From sequence record PV357171.2: 64,000 nucleotides of DNA. One strand, given 5' to 3'. The stretch is from a phage. A program made the translations under genes and the position numbers. This document shows, in pieces, positions 3,892-59,289 of this stretch; positions within the stretch are counted from its first letter, which is position 1, and each line of letters opens with the position of its first letter. The notes beneath the pieces are model-generated. The model saw only the letters and a program-made list of their open reading frames with translations. It searched no databases and was not told the origin of the DNA.

Positions 3892-5649
3892 ATGGGTTTT
3901 TTCGCTGGAAAATATAGCGATGGTAAGACCGTACTATCTTTAAATACTGAATCTGGTGGTGACATTAATCGTCACTATAGTCCAAATACCAATAGTATTT
4001 TTCATAGTGATATGCCATTTGTCCTAGTTGATGGTACTTATGAGTCTGGGTTAGGTGATGCCGGTAATGGGTTTTTTGTATGTCAGATGCCCTCTGACAT
4101 AATAAATATTAAATCCAATGACCCCGGTAGAGTTATATTAACTGCTATTGAGATTAATGGTACTCACAGAGCTTTTCTTAATGGTACTCAGAGTAAGGTG
4201 GGTCAAACTATAGTTGCCACTCAAGCAGATCCTTTTAGATCTTTTGCTAGTGTTTCCCAGACTAGTGGATTTGCATTTGGTAATAGCCTGGCATCTGGTA
4301 CATATAACTATAATCCATCTATAGGGCATGAAGAATCTATTTCTAGGAATGGTACAGGGGGTACTACCTTACATAGTACGTATCATGGTATAGTTAGGCC
4401 GGGTGCAGGAGCTCCAGTAGGTATTACTGTTGCAGAAGCTTTTGCACAGTTAGGATTCCCTACTAATAGTAGTACAGTACCTATAGATGGTAATAACCAA
4501 TATTACTGGGACCCAGGATGGATGTCTCCTTTAGGATCAGCACACAGAGGGCACGATTGGTTTTATGTTTGTAACTCTAACATACGTGGGTATGGTGGGG
4601 TAAGACAAGGTCTTCCTGGTAATGTAAATACTATGTATCATGATGGAGGTAACAGATTTGTTTGTAGGGGGTCTACAACTAATTTAGCTAACCAATCTGG
4701 TAACGCTACAATATTACAGGATTGGTATAACATAACCCCTACTAAAGTTATTTGGTATGTTCTGAATTTAAGATACTCAAATGGTGGTATGAGTATCTCT
4801 GGTAATCCTTTTACTGGTTCAGATATTCTTATATCTCCTTCTAATTTCATAATTAAAGGGGTTAGTCTTCCCAATACTGGATACAAGTTTATTAACCAGA
4901 ACGCTTTTGGTAACTTAGGTTATAGACCAGATATGGAGTATATAGGAAATAACGCAGCGTATACCGGGGTTTTTGGGGATACCACGGCAAGGTGTGAACT
5001 TGTAGGATCTAGTAATGGGGGTTTGTGGTCTCCTGTAGATTATGGAGGGGCTAAATCTCAAATTAGTATTTATAAATTCGGAGCTGGTAAGCAATGGTAT
5101 GTAAACTCTAGGGATAATACTATCGGTAATGAACACGGGGTTGTTTGGGGACCATCAGCAGTTCCATTACGACTTTTTGGTGGAAATGTAGGTAGCTCTT
5201 ACATGGGGGATGATATTACTCCCAGCTACCCGGGAACAGGGGATAGATACGTTGGTTTATCAACTATTGGGCTAGGTATACCGGGTGGCAATGCTACAGT
5301 AATTCTTACCACTGAAGTTATATCAGGTAACCTTAACTGTGCAGGTGTTCCTGCTAATACATGGAATAACGGTGTGTTTCAAGTGCAAGGAAGAAGAGCA
5401 TATAGCTATAGTAATGGAGATGCAATATTCCACCAGATTTTAACATTACCAGTAGGGTATTTAGTACCTTTTCATACTACATCTGCTTTTAGATACACAC
5501 CTAACAATGCCCTAAGTAGAAATAGTTTTATATACACTGCTAAAAATCTGGGGAATGGAAATGTAGAGTTAGGGGTAGTTATGCACGTAAGTTTAGGTAG
5601 TGCAGTTTTCCTACCGAGATTAAGAGTAACAGTTCAACGCCTTACCTAA
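3892..5649 (+). CDS. oad: receptor-binding tail protein (pb5/Oad-like)
   Basis: 585 aa; adjacent and divergent to llp; SD AGGAGA upstream; position before terminase as in T5. Confidence 0.6.
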
Positions 5650-5659
5650 AGGAGGAAAT

Positions 5660-6142
5660 ATGGCAAATGATGTATTAGTACCAGATCTTATGTCCCCTGA
5701 AGGGATGGATGTAATTGAAGCATATTTACAGTGTGGGAGTGATGTGCCTTCTGCCGCACGTAGTCTTGGAATGTCCGAAATTGCTTTTAGAGATATTATG
5801 AATCGTAGTGAAGTTAAGAACTACTTAAATGATATTTTTATGGAGAGTGGTTTCCGTAACAGAGATCGTTTATTTGGTGTTCTGGATGAAGTTATCAAGC
5901 GTAAACTAGAGGAACTAGAAGAAACTGGCATGGGTTCTGACCAAGATATTATGGATATTCTCTGGAAAGCACATAAAATGAAAATGGAAGAAATGAAAAT
6001 GATGGTAGAACTGGAGAAAGTTAAGGCAGCAGCCCGTACTCCAGCTAACCAGACCAACATCCAGAATAATATTATTGCTGGAGCTGGGGATCAAAACTAC
6101 ATGGACTTAATTACTTCCCTAGCTACTGGAGGTAAGAAGTAA
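5660..6142 (+). CDS. putative terminase small subunit
   Basis: 160 aa, HTH-like N-terminus, immediately upstream of and overlapping the large terminase start. Confidence 0.45.
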
Positions 6143-7458
6143 TGGAAGTATCAAGACCTTACGTTAATACAGTAGATGTTATTGATTTCGGAATAGATAA
6201 ACGTTTCTTTCGTCTACCTGTTTCGGGAATACTAGCACAAGAAGGTATTACACCTAATGGTCCTCAAATAGCGATTATTAATGCTCTAGAGGATCCTAGA
6301 CATCGTTTTGTAACGGCGTGTGTATCACGCCGTGTAGGTAAATCCTTCATCGCATATACTCTTGGGTTCCTAAAATTGCTGGAACCTAATGTGAAGGTGT
6401 TAGTAGTTGCTCCTAACTATTCACTGGCCAACATCGGATGGTCTCAGATTCGTGGTCTTATTAAAAAATATGGCCTACAAACTGAACGTGAGAACGCTAA
6501 AGATAAGGAAATTGAGTTAGCTAATGGTTCTCTGTTTAAACTAGCTTCCGCTGCTCAGGCTGACTCCGCAGTTGGACGTTCATATGATTTTATCATCTTT
6601 GACGAGGCGGCAATTTCCGATGTGGGTGGTGATGCCTTCAGGGTTCAGCTGCGTCCTACCCTAGATAAACCTAATTCTAAGGCTCTATTTATTTCCACCC
6701 CTCGTGGAGGTAACTGGTTTAAAGAGTTTTACGCCTACGGATTTGATGATACGTTGCCTAACTGGGTATCTATTCATGGTACATATCGTGATAACCCTCG
6801 TGCTGACCTGAATGATATAGAAGAAGCACGTCGTACGGTTAGTAAAAACTACTTCCGCCAGGAATATGAAGCTGACTTCTCTGTATTTGAAGGTCAGATT
6901 TTTGATACTTTCAATGCTATTGACCATGTTAAAGACCTTAAGGGTATGCGTCATTTCTTTAAAGATGATGAAGCATTCGAAACGTTGCTTGGTATCGACG
7001 TTGGTTATCGTGATCCTACAGCAGTTCTTACTATTAAGTATCATTACGATACGGATACTTACTATGTATTAGAAGAGTACCAGCAGGCGGAGAAAACTAC
7101 AGCTCAGCATGCTGCTTACATTCAGCACTGTATAGATCGTTATAAAGTTGATCGTATTTTTGTTGACTCCGCGGCAGCTCAGTTCCGTCAAGACTTAGCT
7201 TATGAGCATGAAATTGCATCAGCTCCAGCTAAAAAATCTGTCCTAGATGGCCTAGCATGCCTGCAAGCACTGTTCCAACAGGGTAAGATTATTGTAGATG
7301 CCTCATGCTCCTCCTTAATTCATGCACTGCAGAACTATAAGTGGGATTTCCAAGAAGGTGAAGAAAAATTATCCCGTGAAAAACCACGTCATGATGCTAA
7401 CTCTCACCTTTGTGATGCGCTGCGCTACGGAATTTACTCTATTTCCCGTGGTAAATAA
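6142..7458 (+). CDS. terminase large subunit
   Basis: 438 aa; Walker A-like VSRRVGKS, ATPase plus nuclease domain layout; length as I recall for T5 TerL. Confidence 0.85.
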   Translation: MEVSRPYVNTVDVIDFGIDKRFFRLPVSGILAQEGITPNGPQIAIINALEDPRHRFVTACVSRRVGKSFIAYTLGFLKLLEPNVKVLVVAPNYSLANIGWSQIRGLIKKYGLQTERENAKDKEIELANGSLFKLASAAQADSAVGRSYDFIIFDEAAISDVGGDAFRVQLRPTLDKPNSKALFISTPRGGNWFKEFYAYGFDDTLPNWVSIHGTYRDNPRADLNDIEEARRTVSKNYFRQEYEADFSVFEGQIFDTFNAIDHVKDLKGMRHFFKDDEAFETLLGIDVGYRDPTAVLTIKYHYDTDTYYVLEEYQQAEKTTAQHAAYIQHCIDRYKVDRIFVDSAAAQFRQDLAYEHEIASAPAKKSVLDGLACLQALFQQGKIIVDASCSSLIHALQNYKWDFQEGEEKLSREKPRHDANSHLCDALRYGIYSISRGK

Positions 7459-7467
7459 ATAAGTATA

Positions 7468-7506
7468 GGATGGGATACTACTCAGTTGGTATCCCATTCC
7501 TGCATT
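7468..7506 (+). terminator. stem-loop after terminase gene (GGGATAC...GTATCCC)
   Basis: Inverted repeat followed by T-rich tract. Confidence 0.5.
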
Positions 7507-7629
7507 TTAAAATCCCCTTTACAAATTCGATATGATTATGTATACTATATTCATTGATCGGGAGAACTTCTCCCATAATAGAACGTAAACAAGAAAAATT
7601 AATGCTCTACATGAGGTGTAGGAGATTCT

Positions 7630-8268
7630 ATGGGTCGACAAAAGCTAACAATAAAAGATATAAATACTAGATTAGCTGATCGTGGAATCCAAATTGTCGG
7701 TGAATATGTAAACCAGCGTACAAAAACAGTATTTAGATGCCAGAGAGCACACGTTTGGGAAGCAACACCACATTCTGTACTTCATATGAGGAGAGGTTGT
7801 CCACACTGCTCCAATAATACAATATCGTTAGATGAAGTTAGTAACAGAATATCTAATATAGGGTATACTCTGTTAAGCAGCTATACTAATGCTAAAACAA
7901 AACTACATCTACGTTGCAATAATGGGCATGACTGTTTCATTACCCTAGATGGATTGACTCAAGGTAAAAGATGTCCTTATTGTTCTCTTAAATGGGAAAA
8001 TGGCGGATTCCTCTATATCATGTCCTCCTGCAGAGGTACTAAAGTAGGCATAAGCTTATACCCTGAGAAGCGGCTGAACGAGGTTAAAAGAGAATCTGGA
8101 TTTTCTGACATATACTTGTTCACCGTGTATTATCTGCCGGATAGAGAGACTGCTTTAGATTTAGAGAAGGAAGTTCACAGAAAATATTATAATAAAAACT
8201 GTGGGTTTTCTAATTTTACAGGAAGTACGGAATTTTTTAATGTTGCTCCTGAAGATGCTTTCAAATAG
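7630..8268 (+). CDS. putative homing endonuclease, T5orf172/GIY-YIG-like domain with duplicated N-terminal zinc-ribbon modules
   Basis: Two repeats ending CPHC and CPYC; C-terminal GGFLYIM...GTKVGIS...R...E pattern; inserted between terminase and portal. Confidence 0.6.
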   Translation: MGRQKLTIKDINTRLADRGIQIVGEYVNQRTKTVFRCQRAHVWEATPHSVLHMRRGCPHCSNNTISLDEVSNRISNIGYTLLSSYTNAKTKLHLRCNNGHDCFITLDGLTQGKRCPYCSLKWENGGFLYIMSSCRGTKVGISLYPEKRLNEVKRESGFSDIYLFTVYYLPDRETALDLEKEVHRKYYNKNCGFSNFTGSTEFFNVAPEDAFK

Positions 8269-8494
8269 GGAAGCATTCTACAAGAAATATGAGCATGAGT
8301 TAGTTAGGGACGTGGTAACATTGTGCCAGCACCATCACCAATTATTACATAAGGTTTACACAAAAGAACCTCCTTTATTTTCTGCTAATAAGCAAAAAGT
8401 GTGGGTTCAAAAGCAGAAAGACAAATTACAGAATCCTCAAGAAAAGACACAAGTCAAGACTGAAACAAAATCAGGATTCGCAAGGTTCTTATAA
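8255..8494 (+). CDS. hypothetical small protein with His-rich HNH-like motif (LCQHHHQLLH)
   Basis: Track ORF 8201..8494, start trimmed to internal ATG; stop overlaps portal ATG (TAATG). Confidence 0.3.
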   Translation: MLSNREAFYKKYEHELVRDVVTLCQHHHQLLHKVYTKEPPLFSANKQKVWVQKQKDKLQNPQEKTQVKTETKSGFARFL

Positions 8495-9594
8495 TGGGTT
8501 TTAAAAGCTGGATTACTGAAAAGCTAAATCCGGGTCAACGTATTATAAGAGACATGGAACCAGTTAGTCATCGCACTAACCGTAAGCCTTTTACCACTGG
8601 ACAAGCCTACAGTAAAATTGAGATTCTCAATAGAACTGCTAATATGGTTATAGATAGTGCGGCGGAGTGTTCTTATACTACTCTCTTAAATGTACGACCT
8701 AATCCATTCATGGATATAAGCACATTCCGTAGACTTGTAGTCACTGACCTACTTTTTGAAGGTTGTGCATACATCTATTGGGATGGCACATCGCTTTACC
8801 ATGTCCCTGCTGCACTGATGCAAGTAGAGGCAGATGCCAATAAGTTTATCAAAAAATTTATATTTAATAACCAGATAGACTATCGCGTAGATGAGATTAT
8901 CTTTATAAAAGATAACAGTTACGTGTGTGGCACAAATTCTCAAATTTCTGGACAATCTCGCGTTGCTACTGTTATTGACTCTCTTGAGAAGCGTTCTAAG
9001 ATGCTTAACTTTAAAGAGAAATTCCTCGATAACGGAACTGTGATTGGTCTTATTCTTGAGACGGATGAAATCCTGAACAAGAAATTGCGTGAGCGTAAAC
9101 AAGAAGAATTACAACTAGATTATAATCCTAGTACTGGTCAGTCCTCTGTCCTGATAGACTTTAAGGAAGACATCGAAGGATTTAATAAATCCATCTGTCT
9201 AGCCTTTGGTGTTCCGCAAGTGCTACTTGATGGCGGTAATAATGCGAACATTCGACCAAACATCGAATTGTTCTACTATATGACTATCATTCCTATGCTG
9301 AACAAGCTGACTAGTTCTCTTACTTTCTTTTTTGGTTATAAGATTACTCCTAATACTAAGGAAGTAGCTGCATTAACACCAGATAAAGAAGCTGAGGCTA
9401 AACATTTAACCTCATTGGTTAATAATGGTATTATGACTGGTAACGAGGCTCGTTTAGAGCTGAACCTTGAACCTTTAGATGATGAGCAGATGAATAAGAT
9501 TCGTATTCCTGCTAACGTTGCTGGTTCTGCAACAGGTGTATCTGGTCAAGAAGGTGGTAGACCTCAAGGTTCCACCGAGGGAGATAAAGAATGA
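8494..9594 (+). CDS. portal protein
   Basis: 366 aa; position between terminase and prohead protease; translationally coupled to neighbours. Confidence 0.65.
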   Translation: MGFKSWITEKLNPGQRIIRDMEPVSHRTNRKPFTTGQAYSKIEILNRTANMVIDSAAECSYTTLLNVRPNPFMDISTFRRLVVTDLLFEGCAYIYWDGTSLYHVPAALMQVEADANKFIKKFIFNNQIDYRVDEIIFIKDNSYVCGTNSQISGQSRVATVIDSLEKRSKMLNFKEKFLDNGTVIGLILETDEILNKKLRERKQEELQLDYNPSTGQSSVLIDFKEDIEGFNKSICLAFGVPQVLLDGGNNANIRPNIELFYYMTIIPMLNKLTSSLTFFFGYKITPNTKEVAALTPDKEAEAKHLTSLVNNGIMTGNEARLELNLEPLDDEQMNKIRIPANVAGSATGVSGQEGGRPQGSTEGDKE

Positions 9595-53782: not shown

Positions 53783-54238
53783 TTACTGGATTGATTCCCT
53801 ACCGTATAATTGACCTCTAAACATCTTGGCCATAGAACATGCAACCTCATAGTTATCATATGTTCCTTTAACTATACGTTTACGGTTAATAGTAAATACT
53901 ACTTGCCAGTTCTTACTACCAGAAGGGTAAACATGCATTCCTTTCTTATACTTGATATTTCTTAGATTACCGGATACTGTCTGCTCTCTAAGATTTTCAA
54001 TACGATCATCACCTTTTACAGTATTCACATGATCTACTAAATCAGGTAAGTATCCGTGATGCATTAAGAAGATAGCTCTGTGTCGGAGCATAGTTCTACT
54101 CCCTAGAGAAATACGGTAATAACCATTTCCCGTTGAAACACAACATTCCTTGCCTGCATTTCTTCCTGTAGTTCTAAATAATTTTCCATCTTCATATCGG
54201 AAATTATCTAAAAGTTCCTGTTGTGTGAGCGACATCTT
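53783..54238 (-). CDS. HNH homing endonuclease; start trimmed to ATG with SD GGAGG
   Basis: DLVDHVNTVKGDDRIENL HNH core. Confidence 0.65.
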   Translation of the reverse strand, partial: KMSLTQQELLDNFRYEDGKLFRTTGRNAGKECCVSTGNGYYRISLGSRTMLRHRAIFLMHHGYLPDLVDHVNTVKGDDRIENLREQTVSGNLRNIKYKKGMHVYPSGSKNWQVVFTINRKRIVKGTYDNYEVACSMAKMFRGQLYGRESIQ

Positions 54239-54374
54239 TACCTCCAATACATATATTATTACATAATCCACCCAATTTGTCAATGACAATTTATTCATAC
54301 TGTCAATTAACTGGAAAGATTATATAATAATCCGAGCCAAAATGACTCGGTAGTCAGAGTTCAGCTAATAAAAA

Positions 54375-54767
54375 TCATTCATCATTCAGACCTGGAACAT
54401 AGATCCCAACATGGTTTAACTGTTCTTTAGCTTCTTTGAGAATATCTGGAGTGTACTCCCAAATATCATCTTCCACCTGTAAAAGATGGGGCGAACAACC
54501 ATCATCAGGCATACGACATATAGCCAAACCACGTGGATGGAACAAAGAGAAATTTAGGGCAACAATTAAACCCATAGCAGACAACTCATTCCAATCCAAT
54601 TCCCATTCCCTAGCGTAGCCTGATAGGAAAACACCAATACAGGGATCGTCTATTTGCTGCTCCGGAAAAGTGAAGGAGGCTTGTCTTACCCCCAACCAAC
54701 GTTGTAGCAGCTTCTCCGCACGCTTCACCAAACTAGGATCAATCTGACGCCAATATACTTGTTCCAT
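54375..54767 (-). CDS. hypothetical protein, member 2 of tandem paralog pair
   Basis: Shares PCIG...MGL.(V/F)ALN...LF.P motif block with 54777..55205. Confidence 0.45.
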   Translation of the reverse strand: MEQVYWRQIDPSLVKRAEKLLQRWLGVRQASFTFPEQQIDDPCIGVFLSGYAREWELDWNELSAMGLIVALNFSLFHPRGLAICRMPDDGCSPHLLQVEDDIWEYTPDILKEAKEQLNHVGIYVPGLNDE

Positions 54768-54776
54768 TCTGCCTCC

Positions 54777-55205
54777 TTAAGCAGTTAAATCTGGGATCAT
54801 ATACCCGAAACGTCGAAGTTTCTGAATCCCCTCATTTACTTCTTCCGGTGAATAAGACCAACCATAACGTTCATTAACCTGAAAACCAGGAGATTCACTA
54901 GTTTTATAGTTAACAACTAGGCGATGCTTAGCAGGCATAAACAGCTTATAATTTAACGCAAAAACTAAGCCCATTTCATCTAACTCTTTCCAGCCTACAA
55001 TCTCTTCAAGACCCTCCTCTACCTGAACAATTAAACCAATACAGGGGGCCTCATCAATATCATCTTTAAAAGCAAAGGAGATTTCATTATTCTCACACCA
55101 TATTTTCAAGGAGTTAATAGCCTCATTATACAGGCTAGCTGGGAGAGTACGCCAAAAGTTAATCAAAATTGGATTAGCTTCTTTAGAGAATACATTATTG
55201 AACAT
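54777..55205 (-). CDS. hypothetical protein, member 1 of tandem paralog pair
   Basis: See above. Confidence 0.45.
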   Translation of the reverse strand: MFNNVFSKEANPILINFWRTLPASLYNEAINSLKIWCENNEISFAFKDDIDEAPCIGLIVQVEEGLEEIVGWKELDEMGLVFALNYKLFMPAKHRLVVNYKTSESPGFQVNERYGWSYSPEEVNEGIQKLRRFGYMIPDLTA

Positions 55206-55207
55206 AT

Positions 55208-55714
55208 TTACACCTTAAATTGTTGTAAGGATTTACACATTTCAAGATCTGGGCTAAATTCTAGCATATAGCTAACAGCTTTTAAATCTTGAAGATTTAT
55301 CCCAGTCCTACCGTTGACTATAACCGTTGGATACTGATACATCATAGCACCCGCATCATCAAGCACACACCAATGTTTGAGCTTATGCTTTTCAACGAAA
55401 CGAAGAACAGAATTACCCCTAGATAATCCACCCCCCGTAAAATCCGTTGTACCAAGAAAACGATCGATAAGACCTAATCCGGTCATAATCTGAACGTTCT
55501 CCATCTCATTTCTAACAGAGAACCAAGATGATACCCCAACAATCATTATCGGAGAAGGACGAATAAAATCCTGAAAAGCCTTGAGAAGCGGTTTGAAAAC
55601 CCAGTCACTTCCAAAGAAAATCTTTTCATTATCAGGTGCATGATGGTGGGAGATGCTCGAATTGAGCACCCCATCAATATCTAGAAAAATAATTGGAGTA
55701 TTACTTATTTCCAT
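55208..55714 (-). CDS. HAD-superfamily phosphatase-like protein
   Basis: Motif I FLDIDGVLN near N-terminus; 168 aa. Confidence 0.5.
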   Translation of the reverse strand: MEISNTPIIFLDIDGVLNSSISHHHAPDNEKIFFGSDWVFKPLLKAFQDFIRPSPIMIVGVSSWFSVRNEMENVQIMTGLGLIDRFLGTTDFTGGGLSRGNSVLRFVEKHKLKHWCVLDDAGAMMYQYPTVIVNGRTGINLQDLKAVSYMLEFSPDLEMCKSLQQFKV

Positions 55715-55883
55715 TTTTGTTCCTTTCTAAGAACGTATCATACTCAACCGTATCAACATATATGACGCCATAGTCATCGGATTTATAGTCCATTTCCCAT
55801 AACTCACATCGATAGCACCAACTACCATCTGCCCATACAAATATATCATCGGGATGTGTATATACAGATTTAACTATGGACAT
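55701..55883 (-). CDS. hypothetical small protein (60 aa)
   Basis: ORF track; coupled in operon. Confidence 0.3.
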   Translation of the reverse strand: MSIVKSVYTHPDDIFVWADGSWCYRCELWEMDYKSDDYGVIYVDTVEYDTFLERNKNGNK

Positions 55884-56706
55884 ATCTGTTTACCTTGCTT
55901 CTCGACACATAAGGTCTACCCTCTAAATGAGCTTCTACACGAGCAATAAAATCAGGATCACTGAAAGCATCTACCGCACCTTTACTCCAGTAAGGGATAC
56001 CACGTTCTTCCAGCTGGTACATCTCACTACGAGTCATACCTTGATAGCCCGGTTCTGCCGCTAGGCCACTATCATAGTAGTTAACAACCATAAGTTTCGC
56101 AGCAGTCAAATTAAGAACAGGAAATAATTCCCAGTAGAAGTTAATTACTTGGTTAGAGCAACCAACCACAATGATCATATCTTGACTGGTAATACCATCA
56201 AAAACATTATACATTTCTGCGTATGCAGGAGCATGTTCTCCAAAGAAGATTACATTAGGTTTAACCCATTTATAATCATCTGGATCAATAGAATTATACC
56301 CTACATCAATAATCCGTTTATTGCTACTATTGTAGCTATCAGCTACAACAACCTCTTTTAAATATCCGTGAATGTGCAGAATGTCACTATGTGGAACACC
56401 AGCACGCTCAATAAGGTCATCAACGTTGGTAGTCAAGTTTACTACTTGACCTGGGTATTGTTTATACCATTCACCAATACGCAAATGCGCAAGATTGGGT
56501 TCAACAGTTTTTAGCTCTTCACGACGCTTGTTGTAAAACATATGGGTTTTATGATAAAAATTACCACGAAAGGCATGAATATTACATACTTCTTCTAGAT
56601 CATAATCATCCCACAATGCTTTACCACTAGCAGTATCAGTACGGAAGGCTCGTACACCACTTTCAACGCTCAAACCTGCACCGCTAATAATAATTAATCT
56701 ACGCAC
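55870..56706 (-). CDS. Sir2-family (sirtuin-like) NAD-binding protein
   Basis: GAGLSVESG...FR, TTNVDDLIERAG and HIHG motifs in sirtuin order; no zinc CxxC pairs seen. Confidence 0.6.
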   Translation of the reverse strand: MRRLIIISGAGLSVESGVRAFRTDTASGKALWDDYDLEEVCNIHAFRGNFYHKTHMFYNKRREELKTVEPNLAHLRIGEWYKQYPGQVVNLTTNVDDLIERAGVPHSDILHIHGYLKEVVVADSYNSSNKRIIDVGYNSIDPDDYKWVKPNVIFFGEHAPAYAEMYNVFDGITSQDMIIVVGCSNQVINFYWELFPVLNLTAAKLMVVNYYDSGLAAEPGYQGMTRSEMYQLEERGIPYWSKGAVDAFSDPDFIARVEAHLEGRPYVSRSKVNRYVHS

Positions 56707-56900
56707 TATACGATTCCTCGCTTAAATCCTTCGATAATATTTCGGAGTAAAATTGCTTCCTCCGGGCGTACCTTTTCTTGCTTAATAAGCATATCCAATC
56801 CAGCAATACAACTAGTTACACCAGCATTATAACCAGAGTTCCATTGCTCAATGAGCATGTTTTCTAGATTACTTTTTAGATTCTGATTCAAGAAGTCCAT
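56706..56900 (-). CDS. hypothetical small protein (64 aa)
   Basis: ORF track. Confidence 0.3.
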   Translation of the reverse strand: MDFLNQNLKSNLENMLIEQWNSGYNAGVTSCIAGLDMLIKQEKVRPEEAILLRNIIEGFKRGIV

Positions 56901-57072
56901 AAAGTCTCTCCTCTAATTCCATAATACGATTTTCATAAGAGGCACGCAACTTTTCAATTGCCAGCGCACGCACTGTAACCTCATTAGAGTTAATAGCTAA
57001 TTGGGCCAGATCTTCTGTTTCCATACGTCCGTTGTAAATTAAGCGATATTTAAGATGTTTTACGTTTTTCAT
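56869..57072 (-). CDS. hypothetical small protein (67 aa)
   Basis: ORF track. Confidence 0.3.
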   Translation of the reverse strand: MKNVKHLKYRLIYNGRMETEDLAQLAINSNEVTVRALAIEKLRASYENRIMELEERLYGLLESESKK

Positions 57073-57081
57073 TCTTGTTCC

Positions 57082-57363
57082 TTAGTTCTGTACTGTAAAT
57101 TCATTCTTATCACAGTGAGCGTAATAATACCCATACATGCGATAAATTTTCACAGCCTTAGTAGACCCCTTCGATTCTTCATAATCAATCCAGAGCCACT
57201 TGTCTTTACCTACATAATGTACCCGAAACTTCTTAACTTTCTTATCATTCCATGTTGCAACAACACGACGATAATCAAATCCACCCAACCAATCTAGAGC
57301 CTTACGTTCTTCACTAGGCCCTCCAAGATGGGAGACATCTACTTTAGGAAGCAACTCGCTCAT
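57082..57363 (-). CDS. hypothetical early protein (93 aa)
   Basis: First gene after early promoter; SD GAGAGGAG. Confidence 0.4.
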   Translation of the reverse strand: MSELLPKVDVSHLGGPSEERKALDWLGGFDYRRVVATWNDKKVKKFRVHYVGKDKWLWIDYEESKGSTKAVKIYRMYGYYYAHCDKNEFTVQN

Positions 57364-57391
57364 AGCTTTCTCCTCTCAAATTTATAAATCA

Positions 57392-57420
57392 ATTATACAT
57401 AAATTTTTGGCTGAAAGCAA
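57392..57420 (-). promoter_or_regulatory. T5-type early promoter (TTGCTT-17-TATAAT)
   Basis: Read from sequence; conserved downstream AAATTTGAGAGGAG. Confidence 0.6.
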
Positions 57421-57462
57421 ATAAAATAAAAGCCAGGTCGACTAGCAACCTGGCTGATTAGC

Positions 57463-59289
57463 TTACTTAAGATTTAAGTGTTTTACTCTACCAAGTACTT
57501 CTTTTTGTTTCCCAGAATTGAAAGGCCTACTGCCCGGGGATCCCAGGTACCCGCAAACCCTACGTGTAACCTCTATTTCTTCAGATCCACAACTCGGACA
57601 TACAAACCCACGTTCAGAGGCAACAGATTCACCCATATACCCACAGTTGAAGCACTCATCAATTGGTATATTAACACCAATATAATGACTACATTCTAGT
57701 CCCTTATCTACTACGTATTCAAGAGCTTTATGGAACTTTTTCATTTGTGGTAGTTCCACAAACGATATATTACCACCATTAGCTATTTTGGTGAAATGAG
57801 CTTCATACTCAAATTTAGTATCCGGAGCTACCTTCTCCCTTACGTCCAAATGATGACTATTAGTGAGATAGCCTTTATCTGTTAGCCAAGAATACTCAGG
57901 GAACCTACGTTCCAGTAGTTTATTAAAGCGATTACATAGAGACTCACTAGGAGTAGCATACAAGCTAAACCCAAGATTAGTCTCATTAGCTTTAACTTCG
58001 CAACGATTTTTTAGGTGAGTAAGAACTTCCTCTGTAAATTCAATACAGTCCCTATGAGTCTGCGGTAAACTAAACATTATTTGGCACATCTCATAGACCC
58101 CAATATACCCAAGAGATACAGAAGATCTACCCTCAAAAATTGGCCATACATACTCTTCCCTATCTAAACGCACACCAAAACCACCGTGCATATAAAGAAT
58201 AGGGGCTTGTTTAGCCTTCACTTTCTTAAGTCTATCCAAGAAAAAATCATGAGCTTCAAAAGCCTCATCCACATATTTGTCCAGAATATCCCAGAAATCT
58301 TCAAAAACCCCATCTGCCTCAGCAGCAACCATAGGTAGATTAATAGACACTACACCTAAATTATTGCGCCCTGCAATTTCTCCGGAGGGGATAGCAGATA
58401 AAAAGCTACGACAACCCATAGGGGCTTTAAAATCACCAGTAACAGCTATAACTTTCTCATAGCTTAAATAGTCTGGGTACATACGGGTAGCAGAACACTC
58501 AAGTGCTAGCTGTTTTATATCATAGTTAGGATCGCCTGGATTTTTATTTAACCCTTCTTTAACTGAGAATACTAGTTTAGGGAAGATAGGGGTTGACTCG
58601 GCAGCACCTAAACCTTTAATACGATTTTGGAGGATGGCTTTCTGAATCATCCTTTCCTCCCACTCCTGACCTAATCCAAAGCCAAGCGTAACAAAAGGGG
58701 TCTGCCCGTTAGAGTTAAATAATGAATTAGTTTCATACTCTAGAGCTTGGAATGCATCATAACACTCTTTTTCAGTAAGCTCAGTAGCATACACAGCAGC
58801 TTTTCTTTCATCCTTGAGCCAACGTAGCCCACGACCCAGATGTTTATTGTAAGACTTTCTGACATACGGGGCTAGAACCTCGTCGATACGATCAATAGAG
58901 GTACCACCATACTGAGCACCAGATACTTGGGCAATAATCTGAGCAGTGATTGCACATGCAGTAGTTATGGATTTAGGAGTTTCAATATTTGCATTACCGA
59001 TTTTAGTACCATTCTTCAGCATGCCCCCCAGATCTACTAAACAACAGTTGGTGTACCCTTGTGCTCTGTAGTCCATGTCATGAATGTGTATTTTACCTAG
59101 ATTATGCGCGTCTAACAGGTGTTTAGGTAATTCTTGCGATACTAAATACTTGTTAATTTCCCCAGCTAATAAGTCCCTTTGAGTATGGAACATCTCACTA
59201 GGCTTATTAGCATTATTATGTTGTAAGTCTTTATCCGCAGTTAGAGTGAGCAGACCTTTGCAATTTTCAATTAATTCATTCTCTGTCAT
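57463..59289 (-). CDS. nrdD: anaerobic ribonucleoside-triphosphate reductase (class III)
   Basis: 608 aa; C-terminal glycyl-radical motif RVCGYLG; zinc-binding Cys cluster CFNCGY...CPSCG. Confidence 0.85.
   Translation of the reverse strand: MTENELIENCKGLLTLTADKDLQHNNANKPSEMFHTQRDLLAGEINKYLVSQELPKHLLDAHNLGKIHIHDMDYRAQGYTNCCLVDLGGMLKNGTKIGNANIETPKSITTACAITAQIIAQVSGAQYGGTSIDRIDEVLAPYVRKSYNKHLGRGLRWLKDERKAAVYATELTEKECYDAFQALEYETNSLFNSNGQTPFVTLGFGLGQEWEERMIQKAILQNRIKGLGAAESTPIFPKLVFSVKEGLNKNPGDPNYDIKQLALECSATRMYPDYLSYEKVIAVTGDFKAPMGCRSFLSAIPSGEIAGRNNLGVVSINLPMVAAEADGVFEDFWDILDKYVDEAFEAHDFFLDRLKKVKAKQAPILYMHGGFGVRLDREEYVWPIFEGRSSVSLGYIGVYEMCQIMFSLPQTHRDCIEFTEEVLTHLKNRCEVKANETNLGFSLYATPSESLCNRFNKLLERRFPEYSWLTDKGYLTNSHHLDVREKVAPDTKFEYEAHFTKIANGGNISFVELPQMKKFHKALEYVVDKGLECSHYIGVNIPIDECFNCGYMGESVASERGFVCPSCGSEEIEVTRRVCGYLGSPGSRPFNSGKQKEVLGRVKHLNLK

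Follow-up and report, generated by a model that had tools for sequence, protein, structure and literature searches.

Known phage sirtuin systems and the T5.100-T5.107 cluster

A distinct clade of phage sirtuins, found in three conserved gene neighbourhoods, was defined by Iyer, Burroughs, Anantharaman and Aravind in 2022 (PMC9503650). In the third neighbourhood, typified by the T5-like phage SP15, the sirtuin is accompanied by a Swiss Army Knife (SAK)-like HAD phosphatase (section 3.7.3 of that paper), and the authors proposed that the sirtuin strips 2'-phosphates from RNA in a nicotinamide adenine dinucleotide (NAD)-dependent reaction resembling that of KptA/Tpt1, as a part of RNA repair. Here we examine a locus of this type in a 64,000-nucleotide (nt) stretch of phage DNA (PV357171.2; hereafter the window). 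The locus, at 54375..57363, is an operon of eight minus-strand open reading frames (ORFs) that includes a sirtuin, a HAD phosphatase and a pair of DUF7415 proteins, and it is the early-transcribed T5.100-T5.107 cluster of Tequintavirus (Demerecviridae), in a T5-like phage. The best single explanation of the cluster, adopted here tentatively, is an NAD+-dependent module that would act on phosphorylated RNA ends.

Comparison with described loci places the operon firmly within known territory. The DNA from 54300 to 57460 is 93-97% identical to that of Salmonella phage SP01, Escherichia phage JLBYU40 and many other Tequintavirus; 448 phage records match the region, at least 80% of which is covered in 197. 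As in the type 3 neighbourhood of SP15 (PMC9503650), the sirtuin and the HAD_SAK_2 phosphatase stand one gene of 60 amino acids (aa) apart and there is no Macro gene, the neighbouring DUF7415 gene has SP15 homologs with an identity of 90%, and the pairing of sirtuin and HAD is also present in three divergent T5-like lineages. Nothing essential differs from the type 3 neighbourhood, and the locus is therefore a member of it. Since the pairing and the hypothesis were both published in 2022 and the locus is nearly identical at the DNA level, the system must be counted as already known; the T5 Sir2 is credited to Wang et al. 2005 in PMC5107563, and annotation of the genes dates back to the publication of the T5 genome. 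The part of PMC9503650 that treats the type 3 neighbourhood makes no mention of the DUF7415 pair or the 60-aa partner, nor of the missing zinc site and the Tyr/Arg pair in the sirtuin. The present analysis adds a residue-level description of the sirtuin clade (zinc-free, Gln replaced by Thr, Pro lost, Tyr/Arg kept), the 60-aa candidate partner, a link between HAD, DUF7415 and RNA ligase 1 in Aeromonas phages, a fusion of ASCH to DUF7415, and a correction of the 'Sir2' label carried by the HAD gene.

An earlier note on this DNA had the anatomy right, describing an early operon in which a Sir2-family protein and a HAD-like phosphatase are joined by tandem paralogs and small ORFs, and re-reading of the ORF list recovered all eight minus-strand ORFs with the same coordinates. 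It missed the long-annotated T5.100-T5.107 identity of the cluster, as well as the loss from the sirtuin of the zinc site and of two substrate-loop residues. What it suggested as the function, 'NAD/nucleotide metabolism or counter-defence', is worded too broadly to be called wrong and overlooked the published RNA 2'-phosphate hypothesis.

If the cluster does process RNA ends, the nucleophile in the sirtuin reaction would be a 2'-phosphate of damaged RNA instead of an acyl-lysine, which is the chemistry of Tpt1/KptA. Any terminal phosphate that remained, on the RNA or on the ADP-ribose-phosphate by-product, would be taken off by the HAD, with the DUF7415 proteins serving as nucleic-acid-binding or adaptor subunits. 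The purpose of such a module would be the clean-up of transfer RNA (tRNA) or mRNA cut by host nucleases early in infection. Tpt1 works in two steps, an attack on C1'' of NAD+ followed by an attack of O2'' that gives a 1'',2''-cyclic product (PMC11417386), and it is in part because this chemistry runs parallel to the sirtuin mechanism that we favour the RNA-end explanation. The likeness to Tpt1/KptA lies in the proposed chemistry and in the company of RNA ligase, kinase and cyclic-phosphate-processing enzyme seen in rV5-like phages; the folds are unrelated, Tpt1/KptA being members of the ADP-ribosyltransferase superfamily, and the likeness would be one of functional analogy only. The other pertinent system, T4 polynucleotide kinase-phosphatase, encoded by a virulent phage, carries a HAD acyl-phosphatase (its C-terminal DxDxT phosphatase domain) that acts on nucleic-acid 3' ends in phage tRNA repair (PMC3592404). 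Its DxD is kept in the window HAD, which differs in having no detectable sequence similarity to the T4 enzyme and in not being fused to a kinase; no ligase was found in the parts of the T5-like genome examined.

A zinc-less, phage-only clade of class III-like sirtuins

The sirtuin gene (55870..56706, minus strand, GTG start) encodes a 278-aa homolog of T5.102 with a sirtuin fold, matched by Pfam SIR2 (PF02146) at E=8e-25 and 88 bits (cut-off 24). The motifs quoted in the earlier note are all present, GAGLSVESG at residues 9-17, NVDDLIERAG at 94-103 and HG at 113-114, and the catalytic residues about which it had asked are in place and invariant across the clade. Among 27 clade members there is no variation at G9, A10, G11 and S13, at F21 and R22, at N94 and D96, or at H113 and G114. 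The same is true of Y58 and R61, which align with Y92 and R95 of CobB and make up the Y-x-x-R pair of class III. In class III sirtuins such as CobB and SIRT5, this Tyr/Arg pair binds the anionic succinyl group and recognises acidic acyl groups. By analogy, the anion pocket formed by Y58 and R61 may bind phosphate.

The losses specific to the clade hit the parts of the protein that grip the peptide and leave the NAD+ chemistry intact, which is a second reason to favour action on RNA. In contrast to cellular sirtuins, all 27 members have Thr93 where the Gln of TQNID would stand (TTNVD in the window). In the acyl-lysine loop the VYP of CobB has become VIN, with the Pro gone, and the Gly of FGE is variable. 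The four-Cys zinc site is absent, with zero CxxC pairs between H113 and K149 in the 27 members, and this segment is Cys-free and 7 residues shorter than that of CobB; the three-stranded sheet of the small domain is still modelled with high confidence despite the loss. Zinc-less phage sirtuins were noted earlier in Vibrio phages, in a study that also lists T5 (PMC5107563). The homologs returned (50-97% identity) are from phage genomes or phage-sized contigs, and by tblastn the family is present in 1008 of 50,697 phage records, including T5-like, rV5-like, phAPEC8-like, KVP40-like and jumbo phages. A sirtuin of the clade is thus carried by about one phage genome in 50 (~2% of those sequenced), among them the model phages T5, rV5 and KVP40. 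The clade is phage-only and combines a class III (CobB/SIRT5-like) fold and the full NAD+ and catalytic machinery with the lack of a zinc site.

These features also bear on a more conventional assignment, that the sirtuin is a CobB/SIRT5-like NAD+-dependent lysine deacylase, probably a desuccinylase or deacetylase, that remodels, early in infection, the acylation of proteins of the host or the phage; the HAD and DUF7415 proteins would then share no more than transcription with it, or would have its by-product O-acyl-ADP-ribose as their substrate. E. coli CobB is the closest solved sequence (E=2e-17), and the best NCBIfam matches are deacylase models. The window protein shares with CobB and SIRT5 the Rossmann and small-domain fold, GAGxS, the catalytic His of His-Gly, the Asn/Asp of NID, the cofactor-loop Phe/Arg, the FFGE loop and the Y-x-x-R pair, and an earlier in-silico study argued for the same activity in the zinc-less Vibrio phage homologs (PMC5107563). 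It is nevertheless only 28-30% identical to CobB and SIRT5, has an extra C-terminal helical extension, and falls far under every curated CobB-type equivalog cut-off (89.6 bits against 320 and 77.6 against 318 for NF040867 and NF001755, respectively). The missing zinc site, the missing TQNID Gln and the missing Pro of the VxP loop all speak against a deacylase, as do recurrent neighbours that are RNA-end enzymes rather than protein-modification genes. A deacylase, somewhat less likely than the RNA-end explanation, is nevertheless its strongest rival; were the sirtuin to prove one, it would show phages rewriting host protein acylation.

Other NAD+-using members of the Sir2 superfamily, namely SirTM and the defence NADases ThsA, DSR and Sir2-HerA, resemble the window protein in fold and in the use of NAD+. 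In SirTM the catalytic His is replaced by Gln and the operon partner is a Macro-domain protein. The window sirtuin is not of this type, and no Macro, NADAR or Nudix gene is found among the ORFs of its operon. A defence-type Sir2 was likewise rejected, as the protein does not match the Sir2 models for known defence systems. For the earlier idea of a counter to NAD-depleting defences, nothing specific speaks in the case of this NAD-consuming enzyme.

The sirtuin gene has a history of its own within the locus. Its alleles at the shared T5-like position are only 49-74% identical (window against L002, L003, L004, L007, L012 and L019) and are no nearer to one another than to the sirtuins of rV5-like, Ro1 and phAPEC8-like myoviruses; in a neighbour-joining tree the T5-like sirtuins are not monophyletic, while the flanking orf93 and HAD stay at 90-99%. 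This pattern of sequence identities suggests that the sirtuin gene has been exchanged between phage families. The view that Sir2 is uniquely fast-evolving in the operon was rejected, nrdD being equally mosaic.

The HAD phosphatase, the DUF7415 pair and their gene contexts

The HAD gene (55208..55714, minus strand) encodes a 168-aa homolog of T5.105 matched by HAD_SAK_2 (PF18143) at E=7e-20 and 72.2 bits (cut-off 27.5). The family is described as 'HAD domain in Swiss Army Knife RNA repair proteins', a name that rests on computational prediction. The motif FLDIDGVLN, which had been read correctly in the earlier note, occupies residues 10-18. All four HAD motifs, comprising D12/D14 (DxDG), S62/S63, R99 and D119/D120, show no change among 15 homologs with identities as low as 31%, and judged by these intact motifs the protein should therefore be an active phosphomonoesterase. 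Among HAD phosphatases, little or no cap goes with macromolecular substrates. The 168 aa of the window HAD would leave little room for a cap domain, which would fit a large substrate. A profile search against PDB sequences found no solved relative of HAD_SAK_2, and no characterised relative was found either. In RefSeq (T5.105 of NC_005859) and in many GenBank records of T5-like phages this gene is labelled 'Sir2 (NAD-dependent deacetylase)'. The source of the label is phrog_18062, a family of 92 positions derived from the C-terminal half of the HAD. Homology between HAD and Sir2 was rejected as an explanation (BLASTP E=0.19), and since the two proteins are unrelated the label is an error.

An indication that the HAD and the sirtuin belong together comes from their gene contexts, of which about a dozen were sampled across the sirtuin clade. 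Sir2, HAD and DUF7415 occur together in all 21 of 21 close T5-like loci. HAD, a gene of ~100 aa and Sir2 follow one another in that order in Erwinia phage KEY and in two divergent T5-like contigs from metagenomes; the HAD, here upstream of Sir2, is only 39-42% identical, and DUF7415 genes were looked for in the gap of these divergent loci and none was found. Because the pairing has been kept with the gene order swapped and the HAD diverged, the HAD-Sir2 link outlasts rearrangement. The published contexts were also reproduced independently. In DrSchubert, Ro1 and pEa_SNUABM_55, which are rV5-like and related myoviruses, sirtuins 58-64% identical to that of the window lie in a cluster of Metallophos, RNA_lig_T4_1, cREC_REC, AAA_33 P-loop kinase and SIR2, a set that holds every yeast-type tRNA ligation activity except Tpt1. 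Aeromonas T4-like contigs (L046 and L052, ~221 kilobases (kb); 5100..8530) carry td, HAD_SAK_2, DUF4326, RNA ligase 1 and DUF7415 in one run, with no Sir2. This link between HAD, DUF7415 and RNA ligase 1, in phages of a family unrelated to T5, was not seen in the literature consulted, and it draws the DUF7415 pair into the same functional circle. RNA-end chemistry is all that the neighbourhoods in unrelated phage groups have in common, which is a third reason to favour the RNA-end explanation.

A fuller form of this explanation, possible but doubtful, is that the zinc-less sirtuin clade acts on nucleic acid instead of protein, holding an RNA 2'-phosphate in its Tyr/Arg pocket and taking it off with NAD+, as a convergent replacement of Tpt1/KptA, with HAD_SAK_2 and DUF7415 proteins as dedicated partners. 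In T5-like phages, for which no ligase has been found so far, it would serve an early repair or clean-up that makes use of a host ligase or has a purpose other than religation. If the RNA 2'-phosphate hypothesis is true, this would be the first sirtuin with a nucleic-acid substrate and a new arm of the phage counter-measures against RNA-cutting defences.

Several observations weigh against an RNA-end function. Both by sequence and by fold the sirtuin is most like true protein deacylases, and all the residues of deacylation are kept. The unit itself is not constant, as Klebsiella T5-like phages have Sir2, the small ORF and the DUF7415 pair without the HAD. At 58 distant HAD_SAK_2 loci in viral contigs Sir2 is never found within 6 kb (0/58), and an RNA ligase is found at 4. 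Over the first 50 kb of the near-identical phage JLBYU40 and the 11 kb around its operon, the annotation shows neither an RNA ligase nor a polynucleotide kinase, and judged by these stretches T5-like phages appear to be without a sealing enzyme of their own. A literature search found no experiment on any member of the sirtuin clade, and a search by the locus names T5.102-T5.107 returned nothing. E. coli itself has KptA, and its RtcB can join ends that bear a 2',3'-cyclic phosphate directly, so the phage may not need an RNA 2'-phosphate activity. Finally, T5 meets the tRNA-cutting PARIS defence, and this is countered by a replacement tRNA encoded by T5 rather than by repair (PMC11464382).

The distant HAD loci also provide the material for a different proposal, in which the sirtuin and HAD act on small molecules derived from NAD+ or ADP-ribose, either to destroy or reshape ADP-ribose-based immune signals or to feed ADP-ribose into NAD+ recycling, and the HAD takes off a ribose-linked phosphate. 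A NAPRTase-family gene is present at 3 of the 58 loci. A 152-kb phage contig (L011, 5001..8569) carries a Prs-like gene and a NAPRTase-family gene of 596 aa, with a HAD_SAK_2 homolog of 37% identity two genes upstream, and by domain composition only, this set would have the make-up of the NARP1 ADP-ribose-to-NAD+ pathway (PMC13464706); NAD+ supply genes (NARP3) are described in T5-like phages in the same paper. The Aeromonas HAD, moreover, adjoins DUF4326, which section 3.7.4 of PMC9503650 proposes to process ribose-linked phosphates of ADP-ribose. The NARP1-like link is nevertheless confined to one contig, and in the Tequintavirus relative JLBYU40 no NadR/PnuC or NARP genes are annotated in the first 50 kb. 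A sirtuin fold of the deacylase type with an intact substrate tunnel is not known as a plain NADase and has no similarity to the defence NADase sirtuins, and the operon has no Macro, NADAR or Nudix partner. A small-molecule role is, on balance, improbable.

It is also conceivable that the operon is not a functional unit at all, and that the HAD is a nucleotide-pool phosphatase that goes with neighbouring genes of nucleotide metabolism, the rest being unrelated. The cluster does sit amid nrdD, nrdA/B, phoH, td and frd, its gene content differs among T5-like lineages, the HAD directly follows thymidylate synthase in the Aeromonas phages, and DUF7415 shares one metagenomic protein with a thymidylate-kinase-like domain. 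Set against this are the adjacency of HAD and Sir2, which survives a change of gene order and ~60% sequence divergence, and the joint presence of Sir2, HAD and DUF7415 throughout the close T5-like loci. In addition, the small size of the HAD would speak against small-molecule specificity, and a dedicated 5'-deoxyribonucleotidase is already present elsewhere in the T5 genome. We consider an unrelated assemblage very improbable, and the RNA-end explanation is retained.

The two DUF7415 (PF24187) proteins are encoded on the minus strand at 54777..55205 (142 aa, T5.106 homolog; Pfam E=5e-36) and 54375..54767 (130 aa, T5.107 homolog; E=2e-31). They score 123 and 108 bits (cut-off 27), with two matched stretches per protein, and are 31% identical to each other (E=3e-18), in agreement with the tandem paralog pair proposed in the earlier note. 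Despite the two Pfam stretches in each, an hhalign comparison of the two halves gives a probability of 8% and does not bear out internal duplication. A profile search against PDB sequences found no solved relative, and the fold is not recognisable. The family is small: an exhaustive hidden Markov model search of 1.84 billion representatives returned 56 clusters, all DUF7415, and fusions are seen only to ASCH/DUF3850 and to the thymidylate-kinase-like domain mentioned above. The former occurs in P2-like phages beside gene A (L020, 2249..2701; L021, 2255..2710), as 150-aa proteins with an N-terminal ASCH/DUF3850 (PUA-like) domain and a C-terminal DUF7415 module, which hhalign matches to residues 64-128 of the T5-type protein with a probability of 97.5%. 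In some records DUF7415 genes bear the names 'exonuclease', 'tail tube protein' or 'Phage exonuclease (ACLAME 70)', for which neither the sequence nor the predicted fold gives support. A metagenomic protein of 718 aa (P0172) has 13 matches to positions 102-137 of the DUF7415 profile; it may be a repeat protein built of a GW.Y.PEE...L segment, or a compositional artefact.

Transcription signals, small ORFs and flanking genes

The operon reads from a sigma-70-type early promoter on the minus strand at 57420..57392 (TTGCTT-17 nt-TATAAT), which bears out the promoter placed here by the earlier note: the hexamers are read directly, they are conserved in relatives, and a promoter is annotated at the equivalent site in T5. 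The TTG of the -35 hexamer and the TA..AT of the -10 hexamer are invariant in 7 aligned relatives, including the divergent metagenomic T5-like contigs. A consensus scan overlooked the promoter because its -35 hexamer matches at only 3/6 positions. Just upstream lies the intrinsic terminator of nrdD (57455..57431, minus strand), a hairpin with a 10-base-pair (bp) stem followed by a T run, whose predicted fold has -16.1 kcal/mol and a z of -4.45 against shuffled controls and whose stem pairing is kept by compensatory changes in divergent relatives. The operon ends at a terminator-like hairpin (54350..54332, minus strand) with an 8-bp stem and an A/T-rich tail (-11.5 kcal/mol, z -3.5 against shuffled controls). 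In the T5 reference NC_005859, terminators are annotated behind nrdD and T5.107 and a promoter in front of T5.100, and both hairpins coincide with these terminators. Adjacent ORFs of the operon are tightly packed, sharing 1 to 32 nt or leaving gaps of 2 to 9 nt.

All five small or uncharacterised ORFs of the operon fall in PHROG families, with E between 6e-30 and 6e-65. The one of most interest here is the 60-aa protein between the sirtuin and the HAD (55701..55883, minus strand; T5.104 homolog, phrog_5116, E=6e-30). Its homologs (43-65% identity) lie directly 3' of Sir2 in Sw2, CRW-SP6 and Klebsiella phage Roth49 and have the motif W.DGSWCYR in common, so that the ORF follows the sirtuin in Tequintavirus, in Epseptimavirus and in Klebsiella T5-like phages. 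It is a real gene and a candidate partner of the sirtuin. The promoter-proximal gene encodes a 93-aa protein (57082..57363, minus strand; phrog_7953, E=6e-65) that is 94-99% identical in Tequintavirus and Epseptimavirus and 38% identical to a 67-aa ORF of a divergent T5-like contig. It is followed by a 67-aa protein (56869..57072, minus strand; T5.101 homolog, phrog_5236, E=3e-46), 92% identical to the T5.101 region, whose Sw2 homolog is annotated as coiled-coil, and by a 64-aa protein (56706..56900, minus strand; phrog_5827, E=5e-32) that is 88-91% identical in JLBYU40 and Sw2 and was not found in T5 or CRW-SP6.

The operon is flanked on one side by nrdD (57463..59289) and on the other by an HNH endonuclease gene (53783..54298). 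The nrdD protein is only 60% identical to that of JLBYU40, CRW-SP6 and Sw2, in which the genes neighbouring nrdD are 90-99% identical to those of the window, and 70-72% identical to its counterparts in a Klebsiella T5-like phage and in metagenomic T5-like contigs; by these identities the divergence looks like allelic replacement in a mosaic module. The HNH homing endonuclease gene (Pfam HNH_3, E=3e-11) lies between the operon and the gene of a replication-origin-binding protein and has a promoter-like site of its own, TTGACA-17-AATAAT, at 54283..54255. In relatives it is annotated as a shorter gene that starts from an internal Met (MSLTQQ...), and in CRW-SP6 and Sw2 it is missing at this position. 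Rfam (at the gathering score) and tRNA scans of the window found no RNA gene; the tRNA genes of T5-like phages lie in another part of the genome, as in JLBYU40, which has 24 tRNAs at 28-40 kb. The sign of the guanine-cytosine skew flips near 30-32 kb and again near 60 kb, in step with changes in the direction of transcription.

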